A DNA stretch of 64,000 nt, taken from NCBI GenBank assembly GCA_963813155.1, contig CAWEYG010000001.1:79058-143057 (forward strand), in the 5' to 3' direction. A program made the position numbers and the translations under genes. Under the pieces are notes generated by a model that saw only the letters and a list, made by a program, of their open reading frames with translations, was not told the DNA's origin and ran no database searches. Positions 7,935 through 63,828 of this stretch are shown here, piece after piece. This DNA comes from an uncultured Acidobacteriota bacterium. Lineage in GTDB: Bacteria > Acidobacteriota > Thermoanaerobaculia > UBA5066 > DATFVB01. The stretch's first letter is position 1. Each line of letters opens with the position of its first letter.

Positions 7935-7938
<4 letters not shown>

Positions 7939-8651
7939 GACTCTTTCCTCCGGAACCGCAAGATGGCGCACACTTCTTCGCCCTCCTGCCGCAGTTCGAG
8001 CTCCGCGCCGCTGCCCTGCGCGGCGCGTCGCGCTCGAAGAAGACCGAACCCTCGTCCCGGGCTCGCCTCTCTCTTCGCGACGCCGAAGAGATGCTCGGGG
8101 TCGCCCGCCGGGATCCGGCCGGACGACCGGCATGTCAGAACGATTTCCGAAGACCGATCCTCGATGGACCAGCGGATCGACCCGGGAGCGGAAGAATGCT
8201 CGACCGCGTTTCGGGTGAGCTCGCCGACGGCGAGCCCGACATCTCGCGGCGACGCGAACCAGCGCGGGTCCGGCCCGGGAGCCGGGAGCTCGAGCAGAAG
8301 GCCGCGGGCCATCGCGTCGGCGCGAAGGGGCTCGGAGGCTTCCGCGATCGCCGCGGCCAGCGAAAACTCGGCCGGCTCCTCGATCTCCTCGTGCGAAGCT
8401 TCGGCGATCAAATCGAGCATTCCCGCCGCGCTCTCGAGCGATTGCTGGCACGTCCGGAGGTTCTCGACAACGGCGGCCAAATCGAATCCGCCGGGCCTCT
8501 GCATACGCCGGAGAGCGACCTCCAGGTGCAGGTTCGCCCCCGAGAGAGGGGTAGAAATCTCGTGCCGGAAGCGCCGCAGGAAGCTCTTCAAGGCTTCTCC
8601 CCGGTCTCGCTCGTACAGCGTTTCGCGCGGGATCCGCCCGGTCTCCTGCAT
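7935..8651 (-). CDS. cytoplasmic histidine kinase (HisKA + HATPase, no sensor domain)
   Basis: H-box FLRRFRHEISTPL. GxGxG ATP-lid motifs near the C-terminus. No TM segment. In an operon with the downstream NtrC-type regulator. Confidence 0.8.
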
Positions 8652-8698
8652 CGCGAAAACGAGTCTAACATAGGGTCGCTGCTAAGATCCCCGGAGCG

Positions 8699-9448: not shown

Positions 9449-9486
9449 GGTTTCGCGTCCGCAAGCTCCTTCTGCTCTCGAGCGCG

Positions 9487-32034: not shown

Positions 32035-33530
32035 CAATGATCAACGATCTGGGTTCGGTGATCCGACAGGTATCCCGCGAGAAGGACATCGACGCGGAGA
32101 AGATGTTTTCCGCGCTGGAAGAAGCGATGGCCGCGGCAGCGCGACGTTTCTACAAGGTCAAGGAGATCGTCGCCCGGATCGACCGCGAAACGGGCGAAAT
32201 CACCGCCTACACGCCTCGGCGGGTCGTCGACACGATGCCGGAGCCGCTTCCCGAACCGGTCGAGCCGGCGGAGCCTCTCCCCGAGGGAGTCGAACCGCCG
32301 CCGGACCCGGCGACGCTCGTCCTGCTCGACGACGCGAAATCCATCGTGCGCGAGGCCGGCGCCGGCGGCACGGTGCGAGTCCTTCGCCCGGGTCAGGATG
32401 GCGGCGAAGCGTACGAGGTCGAGGAGCCGGAGCTCGGAGACGAGCTGCGGATCTACCGCTCGACGGAAGGTCTCGGCCGAATCGCGGCGCAGAACGCGAA
32501 GCAGGTCCTTTACCAGAAGGTCCGCGAGGCCGAGCGCGAGCGCATCTACAACGAGTACATGCCGAAAGTCGGCGAGCTCATCAACGGCACCGTCAAGCGG
32601 TTCGAGCGCGGCGACATCGTCGTCGACCTCGGCCGGCTCGAAGCCGCGATCCCGCGCGACCAGCAGTCCCGCGCGGAGCGATACGGCCAGGGAGAGCGCG
32701 TCCGCGCCGTCATCGCCGACGTGCACAAGAACCCGAAGGGCCCGCAGATCGTCCTGTCGCGGACCGACCCCCGCCTGCTCATCCGGCTCTTCGAGATGGA
32801 AGTTCCGGAAATCTACGACGGTACGGTCGTCATCAAGGGCGCCGTCCGGCAGCCGGGAGAGCGCGCGAAAGTGGCCGTGCTCTCGCGGGAGCGCGACGTC
32901 GACCCGGTCGGCGCGTGCGTCGGAATGCGCGGCAGCCGCGTTCAGGCGATCATGCGCGAGCTCCACGGGGAGAAAATCGACGTCATCCAGTACAGCGACG
33001 ACCTCATCACGTTCGCGCAGAACGCCCTGTCTCCGGCGAAGATCACGCGGGTTTCCCCGATTCACCACGAGGACGCCCCCCTGACGCTGGATTGCGTGGT
33101 CGAGGACGAGCAGCTCTCGCTCGCGATCGGCAAGAAGGGTCAGAACGTCCGCCTTGCTTCCGCCCTCATCGGCGCGAAGATCGAAATCAAGAGCGAGGCC
33201 GAGGTCAAGGGCGAAGTCGCGGAAGCCCTCGGCCGAATGATTCGGGCGTCGCAGCGGCAGCAGACCCCGGTCGCCGACGTCCCGGGAATCGACGAAGAAA
33301 CCGCCGCGAGTCTCCGGGAAGCGGGGATCGAGAACCTCGACCAGCTGCTTTCGCAATCGACCGAGTCGCTCGCTCCCGTCGGCGACATGGGCGCGGAGAG
33401 GGCGCAGGAAATTTTGAACGCGGCTCAGGAGCTCGACAACCCGACTCCGGAGGAGGAGCCGGCGGACGAAGAGCAGGGCTCCGCCGAAGGCGAGCCCTTC
33501 GAAGAGCCCGCCGGCAAAGAAAAGGCGTAA
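32031..33530 (+). CDS. nusA: transcription termination/antitermination factor NusA
   Basis: N-terminal domain, S1, two KH domains, and one C-terminal acidic HhH repeat (GIENLDQLL). ATG overlaps the rimP stop (ATGA). Confidence 0.95.
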   Translation: MTMINDLGSVIRQVSREKDIDAEKMFSALEEAMAAAARRFYKVKEIVARIDRETGEITAYTPRRVVDTMPEPLPEPVEPAEPLPEGVEPPPDPATLVLLDDAKSIVREAGAGGTVRVLRPGQDGGEAYEVEEPELGDELRIYRSTEGLGRIAAQNAKQVLYQKVREAERERIYNEYMPKVGELINGTVKRFERGDIVVDLGRLEAAIPRDQQSRAERYGQGERVRAVIADVHKNPKGPQIVLSRTDPRLLIRLFEMEVPEIYDGTVVIKGAVRQPGERAKVAVLSRERDVDPVGACVGMRGSRVQAIMRELHGEKIDVIQYSDDLITFAQNALSPAKITRVSPIHHEDAPLTLDCVVEDEQLSLAIGKKGQNVRLASALIGAKIEIKSEAEVKGEVAEALGRMIRASQRQQTPVADVPGIDEETAASLREAGIENLDQLLSQSTESLAPVGDMGAERAQEILNAAQELDNPTPEEEPADEEQGSAEGEPFEEPAGKEKA

Positions 33531-36286
33531 ATGGCGAAGATTCAGGTACACGAACTGGCCCGGCAGATGGGCGTCGGCGACCGCGAGCTGATGTTCCTTC
33601 TGCAATCGATCGGCGTTCAAGTCAGCTCCGCTCAGGCGGACCTGGACGAATCGACGGTGCTCGCGATTCTCCAGGGCAAGACCCACGCCCCGAAATCGTT
33701 GATCGTCCGCGAGGAGAGCAACCGCCCCAAGACGGCGCAGATTCCGAAGAGTGCGCTCTCGCGAATCAAGATCGTCGACAAGCCCGCGGCCCCGGCCAAG
33801 AAGACCGACGCGCCTCCGCCGAGAAGCGGCGAAGCCCGTCCGCGTCCGCCGGCCGAACCGGCGAGGACGGCCGTCGTCACGTCCGAGCCCGAGGAACCTC
33901 AAAAGCCGGAAGCTCCGGTTCCTCCGGTGCCCCGCAGGATCGTTCTCCCCCCGAAGAGGCCCATCGTTCGCCCCCCCGTGCGAACCCAGGGAGCGCCGCC
34001 GCCCCGGCCCGCGGGGCCGCCGGGAGCTCCGCTCCGCCCGCCGCTTCCCCCGGGCCGCCCCGGAGTCTCGGCTCAAAGCGGCCGGCCGGCCCCCTCGGTC
34101 TATCGACCCGCGCCCGGAGCGCCCGGAGCGCGCATCCCGGGGGCCCGCGTGCCGGTTGGAGCGCCTCCCCGCCCGGGCGGCCGCCCGCTGCGGCCGGGAG
34201 AGGTCCCGACGCCGGTGCCCGAGGACGTCAAGTCGGCCCGGCGTAAGAAGGAAGAAGAGTCGAAAAAGGCCGCGGCGAAGAAAACCGGCGCGCGCCCGAA
34301 GATCAACGCGGCGGACGAGGTGGATCTGCGCGACTACGTCGGCGAGTACCGGGAAGACACCTACTCCGACATCACGCTGCCCCTGATCGACAAGAACGCG
34401 ACGCTCGAAGAGCCCGCCGGACCGAAGACTCTCTCGAAGTCCGCCCTGCGGCGGGCCGGAAAAGAGACCCGGCACGACGACACGGGCAAGATCGTGGAAT
34501 TCAAGAAAGCCGCTTCCGACCGGGCCGGTCTTCCTGTCCGAAGGCGTCACCGTCAAAGAGCTCTCCGAAAAGCTCGGGGTCCTCGGGCGCGACCTCGTTC
34601 AGAAGCTCCTTCGCCGGGGAATGATGGTCACGATCAATCAGACGCTGCCGGCGCAGATCGCCGTCGAGATCGCCCGAGGAGATCGGCGTCGAAGCCGCCG
34701 TCGTCTCGTTCGAAGAAGAGATGGAGCTCGCCCGGGAAGAGAAGTCCGACGCGAACTCGCCCGAAAGCATGAAACCGCGCGCTCCCGTGGTGACCGTCAT
34801 GGGCCACGTCGACCACGGCAAGACGTCTCTCCTCGACGCGATCCGCGAGACCAAGGTCGCGGCGAGCGAGGCGGGAGGGATCACCCAGCACATCGGCGCC
34901 TACCGCGTCGAGTCGAAGGGAAGCCCGATCGTCTTTCTCGACACTCCCGGCCACGAAGCGTTCACGCTCATGCGCGCGCGCGGCGCCGCCGCGACGGACA
35001 TCGTCGTGCTCGTCGTCGCCGCCGACGACGGAGTCATGCCGCAGACCGTGGAGGCGATCGACCACGCCCGGGCGGCGAAGGTGCCGCTCGTCGTCGCGAT
35101 CAACAAGATCGACAAGGCCAACGCCAACGTCGAGCGCGTCAAGAAGGAGCTCGCCGACCGCGGCGTTCTTCTCGAATCCTGGGGTGGAGACGTGCCTTCG
35201 GTGGAGGTCTCCGCGCTCAAGAAGGTCGGCATCGACCAGCTCCTCGAGATCATCCGGCTCGTCGCCGAGCTGCTGGAGTTGAAAGCCAACCCCGAAGGCT
35301 ACGCCCGCGGCGTCGTCATCGAGGCGCGCCGGGAAGCCGGACGCGGCAACGTCGCGACGATCCTCGTGCAGAGCGGAACGCTGAAGGTCGGCGACGTCTT
35401 TTACGCCGGCTCCGCATCCGGCCGGCTGAGAGCGATGACCGACGAGACGGGCAAGCGCCTCCAGACGGCAGGGCCGTCGACCCCCGCCGAAATCATGGGG
35501 TTCGAAGAGCTCCCGGCCGCCGGCGATCTCTTCCAGGCCGTCGAGAGCGAGATTCGCGCGCGGCAGATCGTCTCCTTCCGGAAGGAGAAGACCCGCGAGA
35601 AGTCGATGGTTTCGTCTTCGAAGACCTCGCTCGAAGCGCTCTTTTCCCGGATCCAGGAGGGCGCCGTCAAGGACCTCCCGCTCGTCGTGAAGACCGACGT
35701 CGCCGGTTCGGCGGAAGTCGTCACGGGAGCGCTCCGAAAGATGTCGAGCGACCAGGTAAAGGTCTCCGTGCTGCATTCCGGCGTGGGAGCGATCAACATC
35801 AACGACGTTCTCCTCGCCTCCGCTTCCGGCGCGACGATCATCGGATTCAACGTGAGGCCGGAAAAGAAAGCGGAAACCGAGGCGGAGAAGGCGGGCGTCG
35901 ACATCCGCCTCTACACCGTGATCTACAACATCACCGACGACATCCGAAAAGCGATGGAGGGCCTCCTCGAGCCGACGCTCAGGGAAGTGGCGCGCGGCCG
36001 GGCGGAGGTTCGGAACACGTTCAACGTCCCGAAGGTCGGCGTCGTCGCGGGCTGCTACGTCACCGAGGGCACGATCCCGCGATCGGCCCAGGTTCGGCTG
36101 CTTCGCGACAATCGCGTCATCTACGAGGGAAAGATCGGCTCGCTGCGGCGCTTCAAGGACGACGTCTCGGAAGTGAAGACCGGCTTCGAGTGCGGAATCG
36201 GCCTGGATCGCTACCAGGACGTCAAGGTCGGCGACATCATCGAAGCGTTCGCGACCGAGAAGGTCGCCGGCGTCCTGTCGGCGTAG
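33531..36286 (+). CDS. infB: translation initiation factor IF-2; two apparent +1 frameshifts (about 34522-34528 and 34676-34682)
   Basis: IF2 N-domain [15 protein letters not shown]. Pro-rich linker. Then in shifted frames [18 protein letters not shown]...[20 protein letters not shown] and [21 protein letters not shown]...[25 protein letters not shown]-domain through C2 domain to VAGVLSA. Both shifts lie at short G runs. Confidence 0.9.
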
Positions 36287-36296
36287 CGGTTCTTCT

Positions 36297-36584
36297 TTGG
36301 TCCTCGCGTACTCGGTCTTCGACCTGAACCTTCCGGGGTGCCGGGGGCTGAAGGAAAAGCGAATGGTCATTCGAAGCCTGAAGAGCCGCATCCGGAACAA
36401 GTTCGAGGTCTCGGTCGCCGAAACGAACCACCAGGACCGTCACCAGCGCGCGCAGCTCTCGGTCGCGGTGATCGGGCCGGACCAGCCGCCCCTCGACGCG
36501 CTGCTGCAGGAGATCCTTTCGTTCGTCGAGTCGAACTTCGACGGGCCGATCCTCGACTACAAGAACGAGTTCATCCATGTGTAG
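36297..36584 (+). CDS. DUF503 family protein (YlxP-like)
   Basis: TTG start. SVFDLNLPGCRGLKEKRMVIRSLKSRIRNKFEVSVAE aligns with the YlxP/DUF503 core. Sits between infB and rbfA as in Firmicutes. Confidence 0.7.
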   Translation: MVLAYSVFDLNLPGCRGLKEKRMVIRSLKSRIRNKFEVSVAETNHQDRHQRAQLSVAVIGPDQPPLDALLQEILSFVESNFDGPILDYKNEFIHV

Positions 36585-36590
36585 CGAGCG

Positions 36591-36968
36591 ATGAGACGTT
36601 GCATGACCACCGCCCGTCCGCAGCGCGTCGGCGAGCTCATCCGCGCCGAGATCGCGAACATGGTGCGAACCGATCTGCACGATCCCGCGATCGGGTTCGT
36701 CACGATCACGCAGGTCAACATGTCGCACGACCTGCGCACGGCGCGCGTCTACTTCTCCTGCCTCGGCGGCGAAGAGGAGTTCGAGCGCATCCGCGAAGGC
36801 TTCGACCGGGCTGCGGGATTTCTGCGCCGGGAGATCGGGCGCCGCTGCAAGCTGCGGTACGCGCCGGAGCTGCATTTCTTTCCCGACCATTCCGCCGAAA
36901 CCGGGGCGCGCATCGAGAGGATCCTCCGGGATAACCTGAGCGACGAGCCGCCGGACTCCGGCTCGTGA
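36591..36968 (+). CDS. rbfA: ribosome-binding factor A
   Basis: RVGELIRAEIANMVRTDLHDPAIGFVTITQVNMSHDLRTARVYFS, KH-like RbfA fold motifs. Confidence 0.9.
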   Translation: MRRCMTTARPQRVGELIRAEIANMVRTDLHDPAIGFVTITQVNMSHDLRTARVYFSCLGGEEEFERIREGFDRAAGFLRREIGRRCKLRYAPELHFFPDHSAETGARIERILRDNLSDEPPDSGS

Positions 36969-37894
36969 GCGGGGCGCTCTTCTCCAACGGAGCCCTCCTT
37001 CTCCTCGACAAGCCGGAAGGAATCACCTCGCACGACGCCGTCGAACGGGCGCGGCGCGCGACGGGCGTCAAGAAGATCGGCCACACGGGAACGCTCGACC
37101 CGATGGCGACCGGCCTGCTCGTGCTCTGCTGCGGCCGCGCCGCGCGGCTCCAGGGCTTCTTCACCGGCCTGCCGAAGACCTACGAGGGAACGATCACGCT
37201 GGGCCGCGCGACGACGACCTACGACGCGGCGGGCGAGACGACGGCCGAGCTCGCGTCGCCGCCGGCATTCTCGAAGGAACAGATCGAACGCGCCGCGTCG
37301 GAATTCCGCGGGGAGTTCGAACAATCGCCGCCGCCGTACTCGGCCAAGAAGGTCGGCGGCCGAAAGTTCTACGAGATGGCGCGGAAGGGCGAGGCCGTTC
37401 CGTCGGCGCCGAAGCGGGTCGTCGTCACCCGCTTCGACCTCGAGGACGGCGGCGGCAACGACCGGAAGTTCGTTCTCTCGTGCTCTTCGGGCACCTACGT
37501 CCGCTCGATCGCGCACGAGCTCGGGGCCCGGCTCGGCTGCGGGGGCCACCTGTCGGCGCTTCGCCGGTCGAGGGTCGGGGACTTCGCGATCGAGGACGCC
37601 GTCCGGCTCGACGCGTTCGAGGAAATGGACGAGACGGCGCGAATCGCGGCGCCCCACGCGATTCCGCTCGCGGGCATCCCGTTCCCGTTCCCCCGGATGA
37701 CCGTCGCCTCGCTCGAGGCCTGGAAAATCCGGCGCGGACAGTCGGTCCCCGCCCGTGTCGAGGGACCCGACGGCGGCTGGGTCAGCCTCCTCTCGGCGGA
37801 CGGCGAACTGCTGGCCCTGGGGCAGATAGCCCCGATCGGGACGGGTCGGATCGCCATGATCCGGCCCCGGATCGTGCTGGCGGAAGAGGGCTGA
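36965..37894 (+). CDS. truB: tRNA pseudouridine(55) synthase TruB
   Basis: LLLDKPEGITSHDAVERARR...KIGHTGTLDPMATGLLVLCCG, catalytic Asp in the HTGTLDP context. PUA-like C-terminus. GTG overlaps the rbfA stop. Confidence 0.9.
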   Translation: MSGALFSNGALLLLDKPEGITSHDAVERARRATGVKKIGHTGTLDPMATGLLVLCCGRAARLQGFFTGLPKTYEGTITLGRATTTYDAAGETTAELASPPAFSKEQIERAASEFRGEFEQSPPPYSAKKVGGRKFYEMARKGEAVPSAPKRVVVTRFDLEDGGGNDRKFVLSCSSGTYVRSIAHELGARLGCGGHLSALRRSRVGDFAIEDAVRLDAFEEMDETARIAAPHAIPLAGIPFPFPRMTVASLEAWKIRRGQSVPARVEGPDGGWVSLLSADGELLALGQIAPIGTGRIAMIRPRIVLAEEG

Positions 37895-37971
37895 ATCTGA
37901 TACGCTTTCTGGCTGTTGAAAAGTGAGAGTTTGAGTATAGAGAGGCTCCTGAAAGAGCCACGGAGGAACCG

Positions 37972-38247
37972 TTGAGCGTCACGGCATATCGGGAAACGAA
38001 ACCCGAGATCATTCACGATTATCGAACCCACGAACAGGACACCGGATCGCCCGAAGTTCAGATCGCCCTGCTCTCGAATCGAATCGCCTACCTGACCGAC
38101 CATTTCAAGTCCCACGCCAAGGATCACCATTCGCGGCGCGGGTTGCTGATGCTGGTCGGGCGGAGGCGGCGCCTTCTCGAGTACCTGAAGAAGAAGGACG
38201 GCGAGCGGTACCACCGTCTGATCGATCGTCTCGGTCTCCGAAAGTAA
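37972..38247 (+). CDS. rpsO: 30S ribosomal protein S15
   Basis: [78 protein letters not shown] start. Confidence 0.9.
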
Positions 38248-38327
38248 GAACGTTCCGGCCAGCACTCCCCGCGCCGTTTCGGCGGAGGGCGCACGTGTCT
38301 GCCGACAGAGAGATGAAGGAATGAACA

Positions 38328-40517
<2,190 letters not shown>

Positions 40518-42233: not shown

Positions 42234-43265
42234 ATGCGACAATCGAGCGTGTTCTCAGCCCCGCTCGCCGAGACGGCCCGCTCGAACCTGAAATCCGTGA
42301 TTCGGGACGCCGTACGGCATCCCCCCGATTGCCCGGCGCTCCTCGTCTTCGATCGCGATTCGCCGCTGGCAAGGCTCCTGGCGACGGCCTACGAGACCGC
42401 CCTGCCGGAAGCGCGGGCCATCGAGTTCTCCGAAACGAAGAGCGACGAGGTTCTCGGAGCGGCGGCCGCGCTCTCCCCCGGCGACCTCGTCGTTCTCGTG
42501 GAGTCTTCCCGATTCCCGCTCGCCGCCCACCGCTTTCGGGTGGAACTGTTCGAGAAGGGCCTGAAAGTCATCGAGCATCCGCACCTGGGCCGAATCCAGG
42601 ACTCCGAGCTCGCCGCTTACGTCGATTCGCTGGCCTACGACGCGACATACTATCGGGCTGTCGGGCCCGAATTGAAAAGGCGCATCGACCGCGCGACGGG
42701 CGCGAAGCTCGTGGGGGCCTCGGGTCCGCTCGTCTACGACGGCCCGCTGGAAGCCGCGAAGCTCAACATCGGCGACTACACCGGCCAGGTCAATATCGGC
42801 GGCCAGTTCCCGATCGGAGAGGTTTTCACGGAGTCCCGGGACCTCGCGAGCGTCTCCGGAACGGTCGAGCTCTTCGCGTTCGGCGCGGCCGACTTCTCGG
42901 TTGTCGCGCCCGAATCGCCCATCCGGCTGCGGATCGAGGCCGGAAGAATCGCGGCCGCGGAAAGTGCTCCTCGGGATTTCGATTCGATTCTAGCCGAGAT
43001 CCGTGACAGTGAAGGCGAGGTCTGGCTGCGCGAGCTCGGCTTCGGGATGAACCGGGCGTTCACGCGGGAGCGGCGCGTCTCGGACGTCGGCTCGTACGAG
43101 AGGATGTGCGGCATCCACCTCTCGCTCGGGGCCAAGCATGCGATCTACGCGAAACCCGGCTTCTCGAAACGTCGCGTGAAGTACCACGTCGACGTCTTCG
43201 CGGCCGTGGAGCGCGCGGAGATCGATGGCGAGACTGTATACGCGGACGGGAAGTACGTGGTCTGA
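42234..43265 (+). CDS. hypothetical protein (343 aa); weak resemblance to M29-family aminopeptidase C-terminal region
   Basis: Complete ORF with no TM or signal peptide. C-terminal IHLSLGAKH...YHVDVF is reminiscent of the metal-binding motifs of thermophilic aminopeptidases. Low certainty. Confidence 0.45.
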   Translation: MRQSSVFSAPLAETARSNLKSVIRDAVRHPPDCPALLVFDRDSPLARLLATAYETALPEARAIEFSETKSDEVLGAAAALSPGDLVVLVESSRFPLAAHRFRVELFEKGLKVIEHPHLGRIQDSELAAYVDSLAYDATYYRAVGPELKRRIDRATGAKLVGASGPLVYDGPLEAAKLNIGDYTGQVNIGGQFPIGEVFTESRDLASVSGTVELFAFGAADFSVVAPESPIRLRIEAGRIAAAESAPRDFDSILAEIRDSEGEVWLRELGFGMNRAFTRERRVSDVGSYERMCGIHLSLGAKHAIYAKPGFSKRRVKYHVDVFAAVERAEIDGETVYADGKYVV

Positions 43266-43277
43266 AGCTCTCGCTCG

Positions 43278-43410
43278 GTCCGCGAGAGCGCGGGTGGCCC
43301 GGGGCGAGACTCCCTTTTGCCGCTCGCGACGCGGGTATAGCAAAGTCTTCAGGCTCGCGGCGAGCGGAAAAGAGGAGCGAGTCCCGCGACAGGACCCGCG
43401 CTCGAGCGGA
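43278..43410 (+). repeat. palindromic intergenic repeat, copy 1 of 3 (about 130 bp, REP/MITE-like)
   Basis: Shares about 85-90% identity over about 125 nt with 44681..44812 (same orientation) and 63702..63828 (inverted). Conserved core GGGTGGCCCGGG..GGAGA.CCCTTTTGCCGCTCGCG.CGCGG...TAGCAAAGTC...CGC.GCGAGCGGAAAAG.GG.CGAGTCCCG.GACAGGACCCGC. Arms are mutually complementary (long imperfect hairpin). Confidence 0.8.
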
Positions 43411-43425
43411 TATGATTTCGGTCGT

Positions 43426-44136
43426 ATGCGCCTCTTCGTCGGCACGAGCGGGTACAGTTACAAACCGTGGAAGGGCAAGTTCTACCCGGAAGACCTTCCG
43501 GCCAGCGAGTGGCTCTCCTATTACGCCGCGCGTTTCTCGACGGTCGAGATCAACAACACGTTCTATCGCGTTCCCAAACCCGAGGTCTTCGAGGGATGGG
43601 CCAAGCAGGTGCCCGAGGATTTCCGATTCGCGGTGAAGGCGACTCGCCGGATCACCCACATCAAGCGGCTCAAGAACGTGGAGGAAGAGACCGCCTTCTT
43701 CCTTCGCGCCGCCGCCTCGCTCGGCGACCGGCTCGGCATCGTCCTGTTTCAGCTTCCCCCGAACCTGAAGAAGGACATGGACCGTCTTCGCGCCTTCCTC
43801 GCGCTGCTGCCTCCCACGGGCCGGTTCGCGCTCGAATTCCGGGAGCCATCCTGGTTCGACGAGGAGGTCTATTCGGAGCTTCGCGATCGCCGGTGCGCGC
43901 TCTGCGCGGCGGACACCGACGAGCTTCCGCTCGAAGAAATCGTCTCGACCGCGCCGTTCGGATACCTGCGCCTTCGCCGCGCCGAATACGGCGACGCCGA
44001 TTTGAAGAAGTGGGCCGACCGGATCCGCGCCCAGAACTGGGACCCGGCGTGGCTCTTCTTCAAGCACGAGGACGAGGGCCTGGGACCGAAATTCGCGCTG
44101 CGCCTGCTGGAGCTGTCCGGGGCGAAACCCGCCTGA
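43426..44136 (+). CDS. DUF72 family protein (YecE-like)
   Basis: [21 protein letters not shown]...[17 protein letters not shown]...VLFQLPPN, canonical DUF72 motifs. The track start at 43225 lies inside the repeat. ATG 43426 is more likely. Confidence 0.8.
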
Positions 44137-44203
44137 CGCGCGCGGCATCGAATCCCGCGTCGCGGTGTGGCATCATCGCGGAGGATTCGGAGGAGGACGA
44201 GCC

Positions 44204-44674
44204 ATGGAAAAAGCGACTTTTGCGGCCGGGTGCTTCTGGGGCGTCGAAGCCGCGTTTCGGCAGGTCGAAGGCGTCGCGGCGACGGCGGTCGGATATTCGG
44301 GCGGCCACGTTCCGAACGCGACGTACAAACAGGTGTGTTCCGGAGACACCGGCCACGCCGAGGTCGTGCAGGTCGAATTCGACCCGGCGAAGGTCTCCTA
44401 CGACCAGCTCCTGAACGTCTTCTGGGAGAACCACGATCCCACGACGCTGAACCGCCAGGGACCGGACGTCGGCGAGCAATACCGTTCTGCAATCTTCTTC
44501 CACACTCCGGAGCAGCAGGCGGCCGCGATCGCGTCGAAAGAGAAGCTGCAGGCGAGCGGGAAGCTCAAACGCCCGATCGTCACGGAGATCACGCCGGCGT
44601 CGGACTTCTTCAAGGCCGAGGACTACCACCAGCAATACCTGGAGAAGCGCGGCCTCGCGCACTGCAGGATCTAG
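44204..44674 (+). CDS. msrA: peptide-methionine (S)-S-oxide reductase MsrA
   Basis: [15 protein letters not shown] active site. GYSGG. RSAIFFH. DYHQQYL. RBS AGGAGGA. Confidence 0.95.
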
Positions 44675-44680
44675 GGCTGA

Positions 44681-44812
44681 CCCGGCGAAGCGGGCGGGTG
44701 GCCCGGGAGGAGACCCCTTTTGCCGCTCGCGGCGCGGAGTCGTAGCAAAGTCCTCAATCGCAGCGAGCGGAAAAGTGGGTCGAGTCCCGTGACAGGACCC
44801 GCCCGCTCGACC
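44681..44812 (+). repeat. palindromic intergenic repeat, copy 2 of 3
   Basis: Between the convergent msrA and cysK 3' ends. See copy 1. Confidence 0.8.
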
Positions 44813-44816
44813 TCGA

Positions 44817-45767
44817 CTACCCCAGCGCTTCGTTCTCTTCCTTGAAAAGGTCCGTCGAGATGTAGCGCTCCGAGGTCGACGCGAGGATGCAGACGATCAG
44901 CTTGCCCTTGTTTTCCGGCTTCTTCGCGAGCTCGACCGCCGCGTGCGCCGCCGCGCCGGAGGAGATTCCTCCGAGGATTCCCTCCTCGCGCGCGAGGCGC
45001 CTCGCCATCACCATCGCCTGGTCGGAGGACACCGCGAAAGTCCCATCGACGTATTTCATGTCGAGGTTCTTCGGAATCATGCCCGTCCCGATGCCCTGAA
45101 TCTTGTGTTTGGTGTGCGTTCCGCCCGCGATGACGGGAGATTCGGCGGGCTCCACGGCGATCATTTTCACCGTCGGGCGCCATTCCTTCCAGACGCGGCC
45201 AACGCCGGTGAACGTCCCGCCCGTGCCCACGCCGGCCACGAAGATGTCCATCTGGCCGTCCGTATCGTTCCAGAGCTCCATCGCGGTCGTCCGCTCGTGA
45301 ATCTCCGGATTGGCCGGGTTCTCGAACTGCTGGGGAATGACGCCGCCGCGCTCCTTCGCGATCTCTTCCGCCTTCGCGATCGCGGCCTTGATGCCCTCGG
45401 CGCCCGGAGTCAGGACGACCTCCGCCCCGAGGAATTTCAGGACCTTGATTCGCTCTTTCGACATCGTGTCCGGCATGATCAGAACGCAGCTGTACCCGCG
45501 CTGCGCCGCGACCATCGCGAGCGAGATTCCCGTGTTCCCGCTCGTCGGCTCGACGATCGTGCTCCTGGAGGCGTTGCGGGGATCGAGTTTCCCCTGCCGC
45601 TCGAGAGCGCGGACCATCGCGACCCCGATCCGGTCCTTCACCGAGTTGGCCGGGTTGAAGAACTCGAGCTTCGCGGCCACTGTCGCTTCCGCGCCCGCGG
45701 TAACCCGGTTGAGCCGGACGAGCGGGGTGTTCCCGATCAACTTCGTGATGTCGCTGGCGATTCTCAT
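44817..45767 (-). CDS. cysK: cysteine synthase A (O-acetylserine sulfhydrylase)
   Basis: PLP lysine motif [30 protein letters not shown]. 316 aa. Confidence 0.9.
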
Positions 45768-48604: not shown

Positions 48605-51600
48605 GTGAACAGGGAAAACATGCCTTTTTCGAGACGCGCGAAACTCTGGAGCCACCTGGGGAAGGAACAGCCGATCCGGGCGGAGCTGTACGGACGCGAG
48701 CGTCTGGACGCCGAAGCGGCTCGACTGGCGTCCGCCCACCTCGGCAGCCTTCGGGCGGGGGGGAGAGGCCCGATGCGGGGCCGCCTCGAGGAGAACGACC
48801 GCCAGCTCCGGATGATTCACGCGTCGATCGTCGCGGGGGCCAAGCGCGGCGAGACCATCTCTCCGGCTGCCGAATGGTTCCTCGACAATTTCCATCTCGT
48901 CCTCGACCAGGTCCGCGAAGTCCGTCAGGACTTTCCCGCGCACTACGAGCGGGAGCTTCCGCACCTTACCCGGGGAGAGCTCGGCGGTTACCCGCGCGTC
49001 TACTCGATCGCCACAACGCTCGTCGCCCACACCGACAGCAGCCCCGACATGGAGACGCTCAAGAATTTCCTCGACGCGTACCAGGCGGTCTCTCCGCTGT
49101 CGATCGGCGAGCTGTGGGCGATTGCCGTCGCGCTCCGCGTCGCGCTGATCGAGAACCTCAGGCGCCTCGCCGGCCGCATGGAAGTCGCGCGGCGCGAGCG
49201 CGCAAAGGCCGACGCCCTCACCGAACGGGTGCTGTCGGCGCTCGAAACGGCGACCGGCCTTCCGGAGCGGGAGGCGATCGCCGAAGCCGTGTTGAAGGCT
49301 CCCGAACGGCGAGAGTTGAGAATCAATCAAACGTTTGCCGTGCGCCTCATTCAGCGCCTCCGAGACGTCGATCCGTCGCTCTCGACGGTACACCGGTGGA
49401 TCGAAGAAGGCCTCGCGGCCCAGGGACTCACGGTCGAAAGCGCGGTGCTGGCCGAGCACCAGAGGCAGACGACCGCGCAGGCGACGATCGCGAACATCAT
49501 TTCGAGCATGCGGCTCTTCTCGCAGGCCGCATGGCCGGATTTCGTGGAGTCTGTCAGCGCCGCCGAGCGGGTGCTCGAGGAGGACCCGGCGGGAGCCTAT
49601 CCGCACCAGGATTTCGAGACCCGGGACCGCTACCGGCACGTCCTCGAAGCGCTCGGGAACAGGGATGGCGCGCGCGAGCTGGCCGCCGCGCGCCGCGCCG
49701 TGGAGCTGGCGAGCGAGGGAGCCGCGCCCCGCGAACGCCACGTCGGCCACTACCTCGTGGACGCCGGCCGTCCGATCCTCGAGCGCGAGCTGGGCGTGCG
49801 CCCCGGGCTCGCGGCTGCCACCCGCCGTCTCGTCCTTCGCTCCCCTGCGGCGTTCTACATCGGGTCGATTCTCCTGATCACCGCGGCGATGGAGGCGATT
49901 GCAGGCGCCTACGTCCGGGCCCACGGAGCGGGCTGGACGATGCTCGCCGTGTCTCTCCTCCTGTCCCTGATCCCGGGAACGGAGCTCGCGCTCTCGATCG
50001 TGAATTTTTCCGTCAACTTCCTGATTCCTCCCCGCCGGCTTCCGAAGCTCAAATGGCGCGACGGCATCCCGGAGGACTTCCAGACGCTCGTCGCGGTCCC
50101 GTCTTTTCTCGGCGACGAGGAGGAAATCCGCGAGCTTCTGTCTTCACTCGAAATCCGCTCCTACGCCAACCCCGACCCGAACCTCCGCTTTGCTCTCCTG
50201 ACCGACTTCGGGGACGCGGACACGGAGACACTGCCGGACGAAGACCGGCGTCTTCAGCTGGCCGAGGACGGAATCCGGGATCTCAACTCCCGGGCCTCAT
50301 CGCCCGGGCGATTCTGGCTTCTCCACCGAAAGCGGCTGTGGAACGCGGCGGAGGGGAAGTGGATGGGGTGGGAGCGAAAACGCGGAAAACTGACGGAGCT
50401 CAACCGCCTCCTTCGCGGCCGCGGACCCACGAGTTTCGAGGTCGTGACCGCCGAACCGGCTGCCCTGGCGAAAATCCGGTTCGTTCTCACGCTCGACGCC
50501 GACACGCGGCTTCCCCGGGAGTCCGCGAGCGCGCTCGTGGGGACCCTCGCGCACCCGCTGAACCTTCCGCGGTCGGATGCGAAGACCGGGCGCGTCGTCG
50601 CGGGCTGCTCGATCGTCCAACCGCGCGTCTCCATCACTCCGGAAAGCGCGAATCGCTCTCCGTTCGCCCAGATCTCCTCCGGCCACGCGGGGATCGACCC
50701 CTACACGACCGCCGTCTCCAACGTCTACCAGGACCTCTTCGGCGAGGGCAGCTTCACCGGAAAAGCAATTTACGACGTGGACGCGTTCGAGTCCGCGCTC
50801 GCCGGGCGAATCCCGGAAAACGCGATCCTCTCGCACGACCTGCTCGAGGGCTGTCTCGCCGGCTCGGCTCTCGCAACCGACATCGAGATCTTCGAAGACC
50901 ATCCCTCGTCCTACGACGTCTACACGCGCCGGCAGCACCGCTGGATCCGCGGAGACTGGCAGATCGCCCGGTGGCTCGGCCGCAGTGTGCCGATGGAAAG
51001 AGGAATCGAGGCGAACCCGCTTTCGGCAATTTCCCGATGGAAGATCCTCGACAACTTGAGGCGGAGCCTCCTCGCACCGGCCCTTTTCCTCTGGCTCGCC
51101 GCCGCCTGGCTCTTCCTCCCGGGCTCTCCCTTTTTCTGGACGACTCTCGCGATGTCCGCGATCGCTTTCCCGATCATCTTTCATCTCGCCGAAGGCCTCA
51201 CCATCCACGCCCGGGGCGTTCCCTGGACGAGCCAGTTCTGGAGCGTCTGGGGAGATCTGCTGGACAATTGCGCGCAGTTCGCGCTTCGCGTCGCCTTCCT
51301 TCCCCACCTTGCGGAGGTTTCGATCGACGCCGCCAGCCGGGCCCTTTTCCGGCAGCTGATCTCCCACCGGCGACTCCTGGAGTGGACGACGGCGGCCGCC
51401 GCCGAAAAGGACCGCGTCTCCTCGGTCGCCGGCTACGCAAGGCGAATGGGGAGAAGCTGGGTGGTGTCCGCAGCGCTCGCCGGGGCGATCGTGGCGATCG
51501 CCCCGCGCCACCTGCCGGCCGCCGCCGGGTTCCTCCTCCTCTGGCTGATCTCGCCGGCGCTCGCCGCGGGCGTGAGCCGGCCGATTCGCCGGGAGCGACG

Positions 51601-54600
51601 CGAGCTGTCCGCCGAGGACGTGCTCGAGCTTCGCGAAACCGCTCGCCTGACGTGGAGATTCTTCGAGAAGTTCGCGAACGCGGAAGAGCACGATCTCCCC
51701 CCCGATAACTATCAGGAGGACCCCGAGCCGCGTGTCGCGCACCGGACCTCTCCGACGAACATCGGGTTCTCTCTTTTGTCGGCCGTCGCGGCCTTCGATT
51801 TCGGGTACGTGGGGATACGCGACCTCGTCGAACGCCTCGAACGGACGCTCGGCGTCGTGGAATCGCTCCCGCGGCTTCGCGGGCATCTCTACAACTGGTA
51901 CGACACGACGACCCTCGCACCCCTTCCGCCTCGCTACGTCTCGTCGGTCGACAGCGGAAACCTCGCGGCAAGTCTCATCGCGCTCAAGCAGAGCTGCCTC
52001 GAGCTGGCCGAGAGCTCGCCCCGACCTCCCTGGAGGGACGGGCTCGCCGATCTGATCCGTCTCGTTCAGAAGGAGGTCGATGCGATCCCCGCCTCGGGCG
52101 TTCGGACGGAGGCGATCCCGCTGCGCCAGCTCCGAAATCAGGTGCTCGCGCTCGGAGCGCTGCCCGCCTCGCCGAATGCGCTCGAAAGCGAAGTTCTCGC
52201 CGAAATCGAACAGAGCGGCTCGGCCCTCGAAGACGCCGTGCGGGCGCTCGCCCAGGAGCACGCGGAGATCCCGCTCGCCCAGCTGCTCGGCCTCCTCGGC
52301 GACGTGGCGCGGCAGGCCCGGTCTCTCGCGCGCGATTCCGAAGGCCCCGCCGACGCGCCGGCGATCGAACAGCGGCTCCGGGGGATCGCGAATCGCGCGC
52401 AAAAATTCGTGGACGAGACAGACTTCTCGTTTCTCTTCGACGGGGAAAGAAAGGTCTTTTCGATCGGCTGGAACGCGCAGATGGAGCGTCTGGACAAGTC
52501 GTACTACGACCTCCTGATCTCCGAGGCTCGGCTGACGAGCTTCTGCGCGATCGCCAAGGGCGACGTGCCGACGGAGCACTGGTTTCGCCTGCAGAGGCCG
52601 TTCGCCGTTTCTTTCAAGCGTCCGGTCCTTCTGTCCTGGTCGGGAAGCATGTTCGAGTACCTGATGCCCCTGATCCTCCTCCGGTCGTATCCCGACACGC
52701 TGCTGCACGAGACGTGCACAGCGGCGGTCGAGGCGCAGGTGCAGTACGTCCGGGGAAAGAAGATTCCCTGGGGCGCGTCGGAATCCGCCTACAACGCCCG
52801 GGACCTGCACCTCAACTACCAGTACGGCCCGTTCGGCGTGCCGGAGCTCGGCCTTCGCCGCGTTGCGCCGGACGAGCTCGTGATCTCTCCCTACTCGACA
52901 TTCCTCGCGCTGCTCGCGGACCCTTCGGGAGCGCCGGAAAACCTTCGTCGGCTCGCGGCCGAGGGAGCGCGCGGAGACTTCGGCTTCTACGAGTCGATCG
53001 ACTACACGCCGAGGCGCCTGCCCCCCGGCTCGACACGCTCCGTCGTCAAAGCGTTCATGGCCCACCACCAGGGGATGATCCTTCTCTCGATCCACAACGC
53101 CGTCCTCGCGGATCGCATGCGAAACCGGTTTCACTCGGACCCGGCAGTCCAGGCCACCGAGCTGCTGCTGCAGGAGCGGATCCCGCGCAACACGTCCGCG
53201 CTCGCCGGTTCGATCGTCGCCCAGGTGGCGGCTGGCCGGGTCGTCCGCGAGGAAATCGCGATCCCGACCCGGCGGTTCGATTCGCCCGATTCCTCGACGC
53301 CGCGCAGCCAGATTCTCTCGAACGGTTCCTACTCCGTGCTCGTGACGGTGGCCGGTTCCGGATTTTCCCAACGGGGCGGCCTGGCGGTTACCCGGTGGCG
53401 TGACGACCCCACGTCCGATTCCTGGGGCTCCTGGATCTACCTGCGCGACGTGAGAAGCGGCCAGCGATGGTCGGCAGGGCATCAGCCGACGCTCCGGCGC
53501 GCGAAGAGATACGAGGCGAAGTTCTCCGAGCACAAGGCTGAATTCCTGCGCATCGACGAGGGCATCGAAACGCGCATGGAGGTGATCGTCTCCGCGCAGG
53601 CGGACGTGGAGATCCGGCGAGTCACGCTGACGAACACCTCGACGAGGGCGCGCGACGAGCGGGACATCGAAGTGACGAGCTACGCCGAAATCGTCCTCGC
53701 GCCGCAGGCTGCCGACATCGCCCATCCCGCCTTTTCGAAGATGTTCCTCGAGACGGAGTGGACTGGCGGGAGGCTGCTCTGCAGCCGCCGGCCGCGCTCG
53801 CCGGAGGACAAGCCGGCGTTCGCCGCGCACGCGATGGCGGTGTCGGGCACGAGCCTCGGGGGCGTGCAGCACGAGACCGACCGCGCCCGCTTCCTCGGCC
53901 GCGGGCGGTCTCCCCGCGCCCCGGCCGTGCTCGTCGAGGATCGCCCGCTCTCCGACACGACGGGCGCAGTTCTCGACCCGATCTTCTCCCTGCGCCATCG
54001 CGTTCGCGTGCCGGCGGGCCACAGCGTCCAGATCGCGTTCGTGACCTCGGCGGCCGACACGAGGGAAGATGCGCTCGCCCTCGTCGACCGATTCAAGGAC
54101 CCCGCGCTGTTTGACCGCGAATCCTCTCTCGCGTGGATGCGGTCGCAGGTGCTGTTGAGGCACCTGAACATCACGAGCGACGAGGCCCAGCTGTTCCAGC
54201 GCCTCGCGACCCGCGCCTTCTACAACGACCCGAGCCTGCGGCCCGCCTCGGAGCTCCTGGCCCGCAACACGGGCTCGGCCCGAGCGCTCTGGGCCCACGG
54301 CATCTCCGGGGACCTTCCGATCGTGCTCGTCCGAATCGCCGACATGGAGGAGATCGATCTCGCGCGGCAGCTCCTGCGGGCGCACGAATACTGGAGCCTC
54401 AAGGGGATCACGGTCGATCTCGCGATCGTCAACGAGAGCGGGTCCGCGTATCTTCAGCCGCTCCAGGACCAGCTCAATGCGATCCTGGCGGCGTCTCCTT
54501 CGCGCCTCTTCGCGGGCAAGGCCGGGAGGAATCTTTCTTCGCAGCGCGGACCAGATTCCCGAGCAGGAGCGAATCGTGCTGGAGACGGCCGCCCGGGCGG

Positions 54601-57149
54601 TCCTCGTCGGGTCGAAGGGAACTCTCTCCGATCAGGTCCAGCGGATTCCTTCGAGCGAGATCCTGCCGGCCGCATTCGCGTCGACCGCACCGATCACGCC
54701 GCCGGCCGGCAACCCTCCCCTCGAGACCGGCAAGCTCTCGTTCTTCAATGGAATCGGCGGCTTCTCCGCGGACAGGCGCGAATACGTGATCGTTCTCCTC
54801 GAGAATCAGTACACCCCTTCGCCGTGGTCCAACGTGGTGTCGAACCCGTCTTTCGGCTTTCTCGTCACCGAATCCGGCTCGGGCTGCACCTGGGCGGAAA
54901 ACAGCCACGAAAACCGCCTCACGCCCTGGTCCAACGACCCCGTGACGGATCCGTCCGGCGAGGCAATCTACCTGCGCGACGAAGAGAGCGGCGAAGTGTG
55001 GACGCCGACGCCCCTTCCGATTCGGGACGCCGATCCGTATGTCTGCCGCCACGGCCAGGGCTATTCTCGATTCCTCCACCGGAGAAGCGACATCGAAAGC
55101 GACCTCACGATGTTCGTCCCGGTCGCCGACCCCGTGAAGGTCCTCCGTCTTCGCCTGACGAACCGGTCGGCGTCGCCCCGCAAGATTTCGGCGACGTTCT
55201 ACGCCGAGTGGGTTCTCGGGTCGGAACGGTCCGCGAGCGCGAGATTCGTCGTGACGGAGCCCGACGCGGACCTGCAGGCGATCTTCGCCCGAAACTCCTT
55301 CAACGCCGATTTCGCCTCGCGCACGGCATTCGCGCGAGCGAGCGGAGCGCTGATGTCCTGGACCGCCGATCGCCGCGAGTTTCTGGGGCGAAACGGCCAC
55401 CTGTCGGACCCCGCCGGGCTCCGGCGCGCAAGCCTGTCCGGCCGGAGCGGAGCGGCGCTCGATCCGTGCGCGGCCCTCCAGACCGCCGTCGATCTCGCTC
55501 CGGGAGAGTCGCGCGACGTCGTTTTCCTGCTCGGGGAAACGGACGGCCGCCCGGCCGCGGCCGGGCTGATCCGCCGCTACGGCGAGCCGGGCGGAGCGGA
55601 GACGGCGCTGCGCGAGAGCACCGCGGCGTGGGACAGGCTGCTCGGCGCGGTCCAGGTGCGGACCCCCGACCTCGCCCTCGACCTGATGGTCAATCGCTGG
55701 CTCCTCTATCAAACGCTGTCGAGCCGGGTCTGGGGACGGACCGGCTTCTACCAGTCGAGCGGCGGGTTCGGCTTCCGGGACCAGCTCCAGGACGTCACGG
55801 CGCTGCTGGCGTGTGCGCCGGAGCAGGCGCGCGAGCAGATCGAACGGGCGGCGTCCCGCCAGTTCCCGGAGGGGGACGTGCAGCACTGGTGGCACCCGCC
55901 GTCCGGGCGCGGCATCCGCTCCCGATGTTCCGACGATCTTCTCTGGCTCCCGTTCGTCGCGGCGCATTTCGCCGAGGTCACCGGCGATTCGACGATCTGG
56001 GATGCGGACGCGCCGTTTCTGGACGCGGCGAAGCTCGGCTCGGACGAGGTCGAGGCCTATCAGGAGCCGCGCGTGTCCGCCGAGCACGCGACGATCTTCG
56101 AGCACTGCGCGCGCGCGATCGACCGCAGCCTCGTCGTCGGAGAGCACGGCCTCCCGCTGATCGGCAGCGGGGACTGGAATGACGGCTACAACCATGTCGG
56201 GATCGGCGGCAAGGGCGAGAGCGTCTGGCTCGGATGGTTCCTCCTCGCCGTCCTCCAGAGCTTCCAGCCTCTCTGCGAGGCTCGGGGCGACAAAGGCCGA
56301 GCCGACCGGTATCGCAAGCACGCCGCCCGGCTCAAGTCCGCGATCGAAGCCCACGGATGGGACGGCGACTGGTATCGCCGGGCCTATTTCGACGACGGCG
56401 CGACGCTCGGCTCCGCCGCCGACGCCGAGTGCCGCATCGATTCGTTGTCGCAGACGTGGGCCGTCCTCTCCGGAGCGGGAGACAAGACGCGCACGGCGCG
56501 CGCGATGGTGGCCGTCCACGAATACCTCGTGCGCCGGGAGGACGGGCTCGTGCTGCTGCTGGCGCCGCCGTTCGACCGTTCGCCCCGCTATCCCGGATAC
56601 ATCCAGGGCTATCCCCCCGGAGTCCGGGAGAACGGGGGCCAGTACACCCACGCCGCGGCCTGGGCGGTGATGGCGTTCGCCCAGCTCGGCGACGGCGACC
56701 TCGCCTCCGAGCTCTTCTCGTACCTGAACCCGATCTCTCCGACGAGCACCCGGGCGGGCCTTCACAAATACAAGGTCGAGCCCTATGTGACCGCGGGCGA
56801 CGTCTACTCCGTACCGCCGCTGACGGGCCGCGGGGGATGGACCTGGTACACCGGATCGTCCGGATGGCTGTACCGGGCCGGCGTCGAATCGATCCTCGGC
56901 TTCCGGATCGAGGGAAAGCACTTCACGATCGACCCCTGCATCCCGCGGAGATGGCCCGGCTTCGAGATGGAATACCGCGACGGCGACACGCTGTACAAGA
57001 TCCGCGTCGAGAACCCGAAGGGCGTCTGCCGCGGCGTCGAGAGCGTCGAGGTGGACGGAGTCGCCGTTCCCGCGAAGCGGGTCTGCCGCGAGCACGACGC
57101 GAAGACCCACGAAGTCGTCGTGAGGCTGGGGTCCGGGTCCGCCTCTTGA
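48605..57149 (+). CDS. cyclic beta-1,2-glucan synthase-like giant glycosyltransferase/glycoside phosphorylase (about 2,850 aa; NdvB/ChvB/Cgs architecture); +1 frameshift at about 54524-54529
   Basis: N-terminal cytoplasmic region. GT domain with DxD-like TLDADTRLPRES and QHRWIRGDWQ. Multiple TM segments. Two GH94-like (cellobiose phosphorylase-like) alpha/alpha-toroid regions (GWDGDWYRRAYFDDG, GGWTWYTGSSGWLYR). The frames 48605..56182 and 54477..57149 join at LFAGKAG/GIFLRSADQ. Start is GTG 48605 or ATG 48620. Confidence 0.8.
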
Positions 57150-63701: not shown

Positions 63702-63828
63702 CGCGCCCGAGCGGGTCCTGTCACGGGACTCGATCCACTTTTCCGCTCGCTGCGATTTTTGGACTTTGCTACGTCTCCGCGCCGCGAGCGGCAAAAGGGA
63801 TCTCCTCCCGGGCCACCCGCTCGGGCGA
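63702..63828 (-). repeat. palindromic intergenic repeat, copy 3 of 3 (inverted orientation)
   Basis: Reverse complement matches copies 1 and 2, including the GCGAGCGGCAAAAGGGATCTCCTCCCGGGCCACCCGCTCGGGCG arm. Confidence 0.8.

Follow-up and report, generated by a model that had tools for sequence, protein, structure and literature searches.

A family of intergenic hairpin repeats with covarying stems and near-invariant loops in uncultured Thermoanaerobaculia

The window analysed here is a stretch of 64,000 nucleotides from contig CAWEYG010000001.1 (assembly GCA_963813155.1) of an uncultured Acidobacteriota bacterium of the Thermoanaerobaculia, and it contains three copies of an intergenic palindromic repeat, a segment of around 106-126 bases with a conserved unit of 105-106 nt, or 115-126 nt including its basal stem. 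A covariance model built from 85 members of the repeat family was used to place the window copies and to scan fetched DNA of metagenome-assembled genomes (MAGs), whose loci are given below by their L numbers. The copies, their parts and the genes beside them are distributed as follows.

43282-43407, + strand: copy 1, subfamily A, model score 128.6 bits on + and 32.9 bits on -
43292-43397, + strand: core of copy 1 (GGGT...ACCC)
43286-43403, + strand: hairpin of copy 1 including its copy-specific basal stem GAGCGCGGGT/ACCCGCGCTC, -67.2 kcal/mol, z -4.4
43426-44136, + strand: DUF72 gene, Pfam PF01904, E 9e-67, match from residue 20, start corrected to the ATG at 43426
44165-44674, + strand: msrA (PMSR), Pfam PF01625, E 1e-67, stop 16 nt ahead of the copy 2 hairpin
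44686-44810, + strand: copy 2, subfamily B, model score 123.3 bits
44696-44800, + strand: core of copy 2
44690-44806, + strand: hairpin of copy 2 with basal stem GCGGGCGGGT/ACCCGCCCGC, -67.8 kcal/mol, z -5.6
44817-45767, - strand: PALP (cysK-like) gene, convergent with msrA, Pfam PF00291, E 4e-75, stop 10 nt past the copy 2 hairpin
62288-63700, + strand: MFS transporter gene, Pfam PF07690, E 2e-57, stop 3 nt ahead of copy 3
63703-63828, - strand: copy 3, subfamily B, inverted, model score 120.7 bits on -
63713-63818, - strand: core of copy 3
63704-63827, - strand: hairpin of copy 3 with a 13-bp basal stem CGCCCGAGCGGGT/ACCCGCTCGGGCG, -63.9 kcal/mol, z -5.7

The initial annotation, made from the letters alone, had described three copies in these places, 85-90% identical over about 125 nt and folding into a long imperfect hairpin with paired inner and outer arms and a conserved apical segment. 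This description holds: the model gives 120.7-128.6 bits at each place, the three cores show pairwise identities of 82-91% over 105-106 nt, and the folding energies lie at -64 to -68 kcal/mol per copy, with z values of -4.4 to -5.7 against dinucleotide shuffles. The inner arms pair with one bulged G, GCGGGT/ACCCGC and extensions particular to each copy join the outer arms, and the apical TAGCAAAGTC is kept among the copies. The single arms of the element are GCGGGTCCTGTCGCGGGACTCGC (or its complement) and GGGTGGCGCGGGGCGAGAC. The 16-mer CCTTTTGCCGCTCGCG has exactly three perfect occurrences in the window, and outside the copies no place in the 64 kb exceeds 22 bits.

All three copies are strictly intergenic and none overlaps coding sequence. 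Copy 1 follows a stop at 43265 and precedes the DUF72 start (43426), copy 2 occupies the 142-nt gap of the convergent msrA and PALP/cysK-like genes, between their stops at 44674 and 44817, and copy 3 is flanked by the MFS stop (63700) and the start (63862) of GcpE/ispG, a neighbour supported by Pfam. The siting near gene 3' ends without coding overlap, which the initial annotation had claimed, is confirmed by these Pfam-supported neighbours and, in the wider family, by 41 of 43 copies (see below). The longer DUF72 open reading frame (ORF), which begins at 43225 and had been suspected of a wrong start, reads across copy 1; from the ATG at 43426 the protein has 236 aa, its close homologues have mostly 231-240 aa, and the corrected start fits both these lengths and the beginning of the Pfam match. 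The label "M29-like" given to the gene upstream of copy 1 found no confirmation, since the 343-aa ORF located there (42234-43265, +) shows no Pfam match even at E up to 1. The same ORF has a coding-like codon-usage score of 98.4 with a crude gene caller, and for the gene of L097 in the syntenic position there is likewise no Pfam match on record.

The copies belong to a genome-wide family, as had been supposed from their number in the window. A scan with the inner-arm pattern against one genome per species (185,579 species) shows 59 exact-arm matches in 58 stretches, confined to two MAGs: the uncultured Acidobacteriota bin CAVZCI01, which has long contigs, and the Thermoanaerobaculia bin JBOGJO01. 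A second scan, anchored on the unpaired (loop) motifs only and run on metagenome and viral contigs, shows the element in 38 soil and rhizosphere metagenome contigs, divergent subfamilies included, and gives no match in the viral contigs. A syntenic contig of 883 kb, reached via a DUF72 homologue, contains four full copies within 20 kb, and the covariance model identifies 59 strong copies and about five degraded or interrupted ones in 388 kb of fetched MAG DNA. These counts suggest a copy number of around 30-40 per genome, so that the window, with three copies in 64 kb, is a dense stretch. The family is clearly larger than the three window copies, it shows structural covariation, and it is not a part of duplicated flanking genes.

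Across long syntenic blocks the window and the MAG loci show 85-94% nucleotide identity, and the window therefore derives from a close relative of the two MAGs. Both main subfamilies, A and B, are present in every genome; the median identity of copies within a genome is around 87%, and only a few pairs, found within each MAG, reach 97-99%, which points to an old family with low recent activity. Several short contigs of JBOGJO01 end in or beside the element (L010, L011, L017, L025, L029, L032, L047 and L048), as expected of a repeat that breaks short-read assemblies, and the DUF72 start illustrates how the same repeat misleads ORF callers. The element matches no Rfam family: with Rfam 15, the only match in the window that reaches its gathering score is a tRNA, and over 43200-44900, with E up to 10, the best matches are eukaryotic families far below their thresholds.

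The hairpin was evaluated on an alignment of 85 distinct copies with a hand-written structure of 44 pairs in four helices. Standard pairs make up 88.3% of the cells in this structure; sliding the 3' partners by 1-3 columns lowers this to 39-51%. Changes on both sides are present in 25 of the 44 pairs, against 12.8 +/- 1.9 in shuffles, and none of 500 shuffles, taken as counts rather than as probabilities, attains any of five covariation measures. The structure is secure on account of the slid controls and of multiple independent compensations, and the covariation, which the initial annotation had suggested checking, favours the hairpin. A pseudoknot between the GUCC of the apical loop and the basal GGAC was also considered and rejected, as both segments are invariant and the loop variants are uncompensated.

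The two collection scans are complementary, the inner arms being fixed and the loops free in one, and the loops fixed and the stems free in the other. In the arm-anchored set, GG, ACAGG, GGGTGG and most of TAGCAAAGTC are invariant or nearly so, whereas paired positions vary together, such as G-C/A-U/G-U at columns 25/117 and, at columns 37/106, C-G and U-A in 26 copies each. In the loop-anchored set, subfamilies C, D and E rewrite the stems yet still pair; in subfamily C, TTTT-G-CCGCTCGC/GCGAGCGG-AAAA becomes TGGGA-G-CCGCGCGC/GCGCGCGG-TCCCA with pairing kept, and the tandem G.A/A.G of the common types is replaced in the rewritten subfamilies by two Watson-Crick pairs. The near-invariant unpaired motifs are the GG/ACAGG internal loop beside the base of the hairpin and, at the apex, GTAGCAAAGTC. 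Together these data depict a folded single strand whose stems must pair and certain of whose loop bases must keep their identity.

One strand of this hairpin is favoured. The top strand, which is the + strand of copies 1 and 2, folds better in 67 of the 85 copies with RNA parameters and in 81 of them with DNA parameters, and at the window copies the covariance model gives 120-129 bits on one strand and 27-33 on the other, a difference of about fourfold. On the top strand, two pairs of the consensus consist of G.T (50/85 and 52/85 copies). The two main helices contain, by our own sum, 68 further G.T/T.G against 29 A.C/C.A, but this tally was dropped as a strand test because it is not significant with the apical pairs counted, and the folding energies and model scores were used instead.

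Strong covariation together with near-invariant unpaired bases, and a top strand that folds better in most copies with RNA parameters, are also what would be seen in a structured RNA with a function for the host, whose conserved loops would bind a protein or an RNase and which would act as a 3'-end stabiliser, a processing site or a protein sponge. Under this explanation, selection on RNA rather than mobility would be behind the covariation and the invariant loops, and REP and ERIC repeats, which act as RNA hairpins (PMC3733652), offer a precedent. The closeness of the copies to stop codons, the presence of other GC-rich hairpins at empty orthologous sites, and a conservation of orthologous copies like that of coding flanks (see below) are on its side too. 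It is the main rival reading, but we consider it unlikely, for the orientation of the copies and for their independent insertions, both described in the following paragraphs.

The context of the copies was counted with crude codon-usage gene calls. Among the 43 copies with both neighbours called, 15 are between convergent genes, 26 between tandem genes and two between divergent genes, whereas the background spacers longer than 100 nt are 38 convergent, 82 tandem and 27 divergent; the probability of two or fewer divergent cases is, by our binomial estimate, around 0.01. In 41 of the 43, the copy is faced by at least one gene 3' end, and around 50% of these stop codons come no further than 56 nt from the copy. 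Relative to the gene that ends towards the copy, the orientation is random: 19 copies run in its sense and 20 against it. Transcription from the upstream gene would therefore yield the better-folding strand in just 19 of 39 copies, and the other half would be read as the weaker strand if they had no promoter of their own, which argues against a host RNA. The consensus scan finds no promoter-like site at the window copies, conservation ends at the basal stem, and the neighbours are unrelated housekeeping genes (tig/clpP, sucC, ispG, msrA, tRNA-Thr); these points, like the lack of an Rfam match, speak against the same explanation, and the unrelated neighbours indicate that the element is not a gene-specific regulator.

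The GC-rich and very stable hairpins, located right after stop codons and also between convergent genes, recall intrinsic terminators, and the initial annotation had listed both a terminator module and a small RNA. However, the T run that follows the hairpin of an intrinsic terminator is absent: over the 25 nt that follow, T makes up a mean fraction of 0.14 (top strand) or 0.16 (bottom strand), the background value being 0.17, and four or more T in a row are present in only one of 91 copies on the top strand and four of 91 on the bottom strand. The consensus scan at the window copies shows a single terminator-like site, which falls within copy 1, on its opposite strand. Nor would a terminator need anything close to an interrupted stem of 50 bp with invariant loops. 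The canonical terminator is thus unsupported, as is the independent small-RNA gene, which shows neither a promoter-like site nor conserved upstream sequence nor an Rfam match, and it is very improbable that the family consists of simply duplicated terminators or independently transcribed small-RNA genes.

Almost every one of the 85 copies begins with (GC)GGGT... and finishes with ...ACCC(GC), and GTAG is present in the apical loop only. GC is found on both sides of GGGT...ACCC in 67 of 84 copies. This could be read as a duplicated dinucleotide around a classical miniature inverted-repeat transposable element (MITE) moved by a DDE transposase, with the arms as terminal inverted repeats (TIRs); the size of around 110-125 nt and the palindromic build resemble those of ERIC, Correia and RUP repeats, and the sites are polymorphic. 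However, GC is self-complementary and equally extends the stem, the variant flanks (TC...GA, AT...AT) are complementary and not directly repeated, and no direct repeat of 3-8 nt is present at any offset, except those that come from a palindromic outer frame, so that the check for target-site duplications proposed by the initial annotation yields nothing beyond this ambiguous GC. Recognition of double-stranded TIRs requires neither compensation along the whole hairpin nor a better-folding strand, and no DDE transposase with these ends was seen in the fetched loci, although no search aimed at DDE transposases was made. A DDE-moved MITE appears improbable. CTCGCTCGG was also tried as a boundary or target motif and discarded, because the window contains five matches against six expected.

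The comparison of orthologous sites shows that copies have been gained, lost or replaced among related genomes. The window contains two sites at which a MAG has a copy and the window does not, and the features of this comparison are the following.

6227-6297, no strand: site without element, with two short GC-rich hairpins instead, upstream of tRNA-Thr (fold and alignment)
6346-6421, + strand: tRNA-Thr (CGT)
36585-36600, no strand: empty site, with only 16 nt between conserved flanks, filled in both MAGs

The first site is contained in window positions 2115-10034, which are 90% identical to L002 of MAG CAVZCI01, where the orthologous spacer (4117-4244) shows a copy between the gene end and tRNA-Thr. 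The second site is contained in positions 32475-40163, which are 92-94% identical to L022. L022 has there a repeat mosaic of around 320 nt that includes a type-B copy in + orientation, and L009, which belongs to the other MAG, has at the same site a type-A copy in - orientation inside a larger mosaic; the site was thus filled twice independently and is empty in the window. A comparison of L083 with L014 as a possible empty site had ill-chosen alignment ranges and is left out of account. A third case is the msrA/cysK spacer, with a type-B copy in the window, a type-A copy in L097 and only a perfect hairpin of 38 nt in L098, GGGTCCTGTC-GCGG-GACAGGACCC, which is the right end of the element plus its complement. 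Orthologous sites that are empty, filled and independently filled indicate that the element moves or is replaced, and independent insertions of different subfamilies at one site would require a copying mechanism even if the element were a host RNA.

Short perfect palindromes made of the right end and its complement are located at L098 1391-1418, which is this msrA/cysK site, and at L097 16437-16493; they could be excision footprints, REP-like doublets or precursors. In L098, the position of copy 1 upstream of DUF72 is occupied (40-115) by a different palindromic repeat, GTCATTCTGAGGAGCGAAGCGACGAAGAATC...GATCCTTCGCTTCGCTCAGGATGAC.

The copy 1 left flank, TCCGCGAGAGCGCGGGTGG, is identical to that of an L097 copy located at a different site, and an extended basal stem of 13 nt, TCCGCGAGAGCGCGGGT, is common to window copy 1 and the L097 copy (11433), again at different sites. 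The variable stem therefore belongs to the repeated unit and is not a pre-existing target hairpin. For this reason, insertion into the apex of pre-existing target hairpins was rejected as a general rule; orthologous copies also differ by compensatory changes in the basal stem, which counters it as well, and the pairing excess beyond GC is modest, the mean run being 3.9, compared with 2.5 for shuffled partners.

Further copies are common to different species at orthologous sites: window copy 3 and L035, L003 and L055, L023 and L046, L030 and L088, and L013 and L071. These pairs keep their subfamily, show compensatory differences in their basal stems, and have identities of 89-97%, against 77-90% for the mostly coding flanks; for copy 3 and L035 (CAVZCI01) the core is 88.7% identical and the flanks 85.6/89.9%. 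A bolder and rather unlikely reading is that the element is more than a decaying mobile repeat and would be a domesticated structure-specific module, with invariant loops read by a dedicated protein of the host or of a symbiont and kept at orthologous sites by selection of coding strength. It might take the form of a REPIN-RAYT-like partnership with a long-arm architecture in Acidobacteriota or that of a protein-bound RNA element of mRNA 3' ends.

Several known systems share features with this family. Repetitive extragenic palindromes (REPs) are palindromes of 20-40 bp that carry a GTAG or CGTC tag (Di Nocera et al., 2013; PMC3733652). The element is similar to them in being extragenic and mostly 3' of coding regions, as are the window copies (3/3 intergenic) and the wider family, but its unit exceeds the REP size, into which only the small 23-nt hairpin of its right end would fall. 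REPINs, hairpins of around 100 nt formed by two inverted REPs, show compensatory changes and are tied to a REP-associated tyrosine transposase (RAYT; Bertels and Rainey, 2011; PMC3116915). Like them, the element is an extragenic single long hairpin of around 100 nt, in single-stranded DNA or RNA, kept by compensatory changes, and it shows singlet remnants and vertical inheritance, with copies that persist at orthologous sites. REPIN copy numbers range from tens to hundreds, and the number here is modest. RAYT-like TIRYT genes, one group of which is specific to Acidobacteria, have long TIRs on both sides that carry a GGGGWSAS motif, and the TIRs of these TIRtrons can give rise to repeat families of moderate abundance in a dimeric arrangement (PMC3733652). 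The element resembles them in its phylum, in long arms unrelated to GTAG REPs, in its moderate abundance and in being a foldable dimer, and its left arm contains GGGGCGAG, which agrees with 7/8 of GGGGWSAS, an imperfect likeness judged by the published motif; the TIRtron resemblance is a lead. TIRtron TIRs flank a TIRYT gene, and none was found beside the copies fetched here.

ERIC/IRU, Correia and RUP repeats are likewise imperfect palindromes of 100-170 nt, intergenic, transcribed, present in either orientation and able to form RNA hairpins. They differ from the element in their clear TIRs, their TA or other target duplications and, in some, known DDE partners; here there is no duplication beyond the ambiguous GC, which also separates the element from DDE-type MITEs, and one strand is favoured. 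The bacterial interspersed mosaic elements (BIMEs) of enterobacteria share with it a hairpin module often set in a frame of other palindromes, a frame that also occurs with a different centre, but the building blocks here are unrelated in sequence and much longer than REPs. Integron attC sites, which have R''/R' boxes (RYYYAAC ... GTTRRRY) and follow each cassette in a single orientation, do not fit: the ends of the element have no GTT/AAC boxes, its copies run in both directions, and the genes beside them have housekeeping roles. We place the element as a new family among the bacterial intergenic palindromic repeats, a known class, with REPINs and TIR dimers as its nearest counterparts, though it is a proven member of neither. 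Of the readings in the initial annotation, the REP/BIME- or MITE-like one agrees best with the presence or absence of copies at a site, the independent insertions and the mosaics, but the REP size, the end tag and the target duplication are absent.

We favour as the probable explanation a non-autonomous repeat, REPIN-like or similar to a long-TIR dimer, whose top strand is recognised in folded form. The unit would consist of the core of around 106 nt (GGGTGG...GACAGGACCC) and a basal stem of variable sequence. Between genes, copies would arise, disappear and be replaced, in most cases no more than a few tens of bases past a stop codon, and established copies would be inherited vertically and conserved as well as the neighbouring genes. 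A protein would read the near-invariant unpaired bases of the folded single-stranded top strand, that is, the GG/ACAGG loop and the GTAGCAAAGTC apex, and would need the stems only to pair. Recognition of a folded strand would explain the invariant loops, the stems that are free to change but paired, the favoured strand and the indifference to the direction of transcription. The most likely reader would be an HUH tyrosine transposase of the IS200/IS605 type and RAYT/TIRYT kind that works on single-stranded DNA. If transcribed in the 3' end of a gene, the element would form a very stable hairpin in either orientation, and this hairpin may replace the small GC-rich hairpins of the empty sites, a role which fits both the siting just after stop codons and the small hairpins at empty sites. 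The data show the family, its structure and covariation, the strand asymmetry, the bias in siting, the presence/absence polymorphism and the independent insertions; the enzyme, an intermediate of single-stranded DNA and any influence on the 3' ends of mRNAs are inferred.

A partner gene was looked for with tblastn, using three approximate transposase sequences, with an HUH...Y...NP motif scan and with Pfam on the ORFs beside the copies. A single-copy gene would take up around 0.01% of a genome, and the search covered around 570 kb. The ORFs between and beside the copies are sucC, tig/clpP and other housekeeping genes, or show no Pfam match.

Several points weigh against a REPIN-like repeat recognised as a folded strand. 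No Y1/HUH gene (IS200/IS605, RAYT) was found in the approximately 570 kb fetched around the copies, with query sequences that are approximate, whereas REPINs have a cognate RAYT. The GTAG/CGTC end tag of REPs is missing from the ends of the element. The two arms of a REPIN are each palindromic, so that a clover fold is possible, whereas here only the right end forms such a hairpin, with z -1.7; and the spacer of REPINs is their least conserved part, whereas here the apex TAGCAAAGTC is nearly invariant and it is the basal and second stems that vary. The orientation of the copies shows no link to local GC skew or to the gene-strand majority, which are weak proxies for the direction of replication. 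On the side of the data, the copies are related, hence the shuffle counts are not probabilities; each collection scan fixed a part of the sequence, and the invariance of the fixed parts is uninformative; the context statistics depend on crude codon-usage gene calls; and the G.T excess is gone when the doubtful apical pairs are included (73 against 93), for which reason it carries little weight.

The covariation, the invariant loops and the better-folding strand lead to the testable prediction that a protein reads the folded single strand. If its partner were of the RAYT/TIRYT type, REPIN-like, vertically inherited partnerships of a repeat and a transposase would extend to the Acidobacteriota, with a different architecture. 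The element is in any case a clean and well-bounded structured repeat from uncultured soil Thermoanaerobaculia, a lineage of which little is known, and its covariance model is usable for masking or as a lineage marker in soil metagenomes.

Fragments of the element are mostly right ends, with around nine solo right ends and two solo left ends by our reading. The right end forms a small hairpin of its own, of 23 nt (GCGAGTCC/GGACCCGC), which is weak, and the left end GGGTGGCGCGGGG has no equivalent small hairpin. The variation at columns 108-111 tracks the long hairpin and not the local hairpin of the right end.

Many MAG and metagenome copies are surrounded by a larger repeated frame, CTCGCTCG.../...CGAGCGAG, with ...CTCGCTCG..GAGCGAAGGCCCGCGAGGGTGGGGCCAACGCGCCGGC... 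on the left and ...GAGCCGGCGCTGGGGCT..CCGAGCGAG on the right, and with the outer motifs ...GGGGCCAACGCGCCGGC... / ...GCCGGCGCTGGGGCT...CCGAGCGAG. The framed MAG copies are those of L001, L003, L004, L013, L016, L026, L028, L031, L036, L042, L051, L053 and L056. In L025, L037 and L041 the same frame contains a different centre of 66 nt, and the three window copies are plain, without the frame. The lineage has a BIME-like mosaic of several palindromic modules.

A mini-hairpin of around 36 nt, CTGCG(nn)GCCGAAGC(nn)CTACGGCG(nn)GCGAAGGC, is nested in two copies and is also present beside a solo right end (L038 around 250-290, L054 around 4480-4515 and L007 around 6190-6215); it looks like a second, smaller mobile palindrome.

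Two further genes of the window were noted. The gene at 48605-56182 (+) encodes a protein of 2525 aa with GT2, glucoamylase-like and GH94 domains, which resembles a cyclic beta-1,2-glucan synthase. The open frame at 2-6214 (+) is probably over-extended, as its SMC_N/AAA match begins only at around residue 912, and the real SMC-like gene is likely shorter than this frame.

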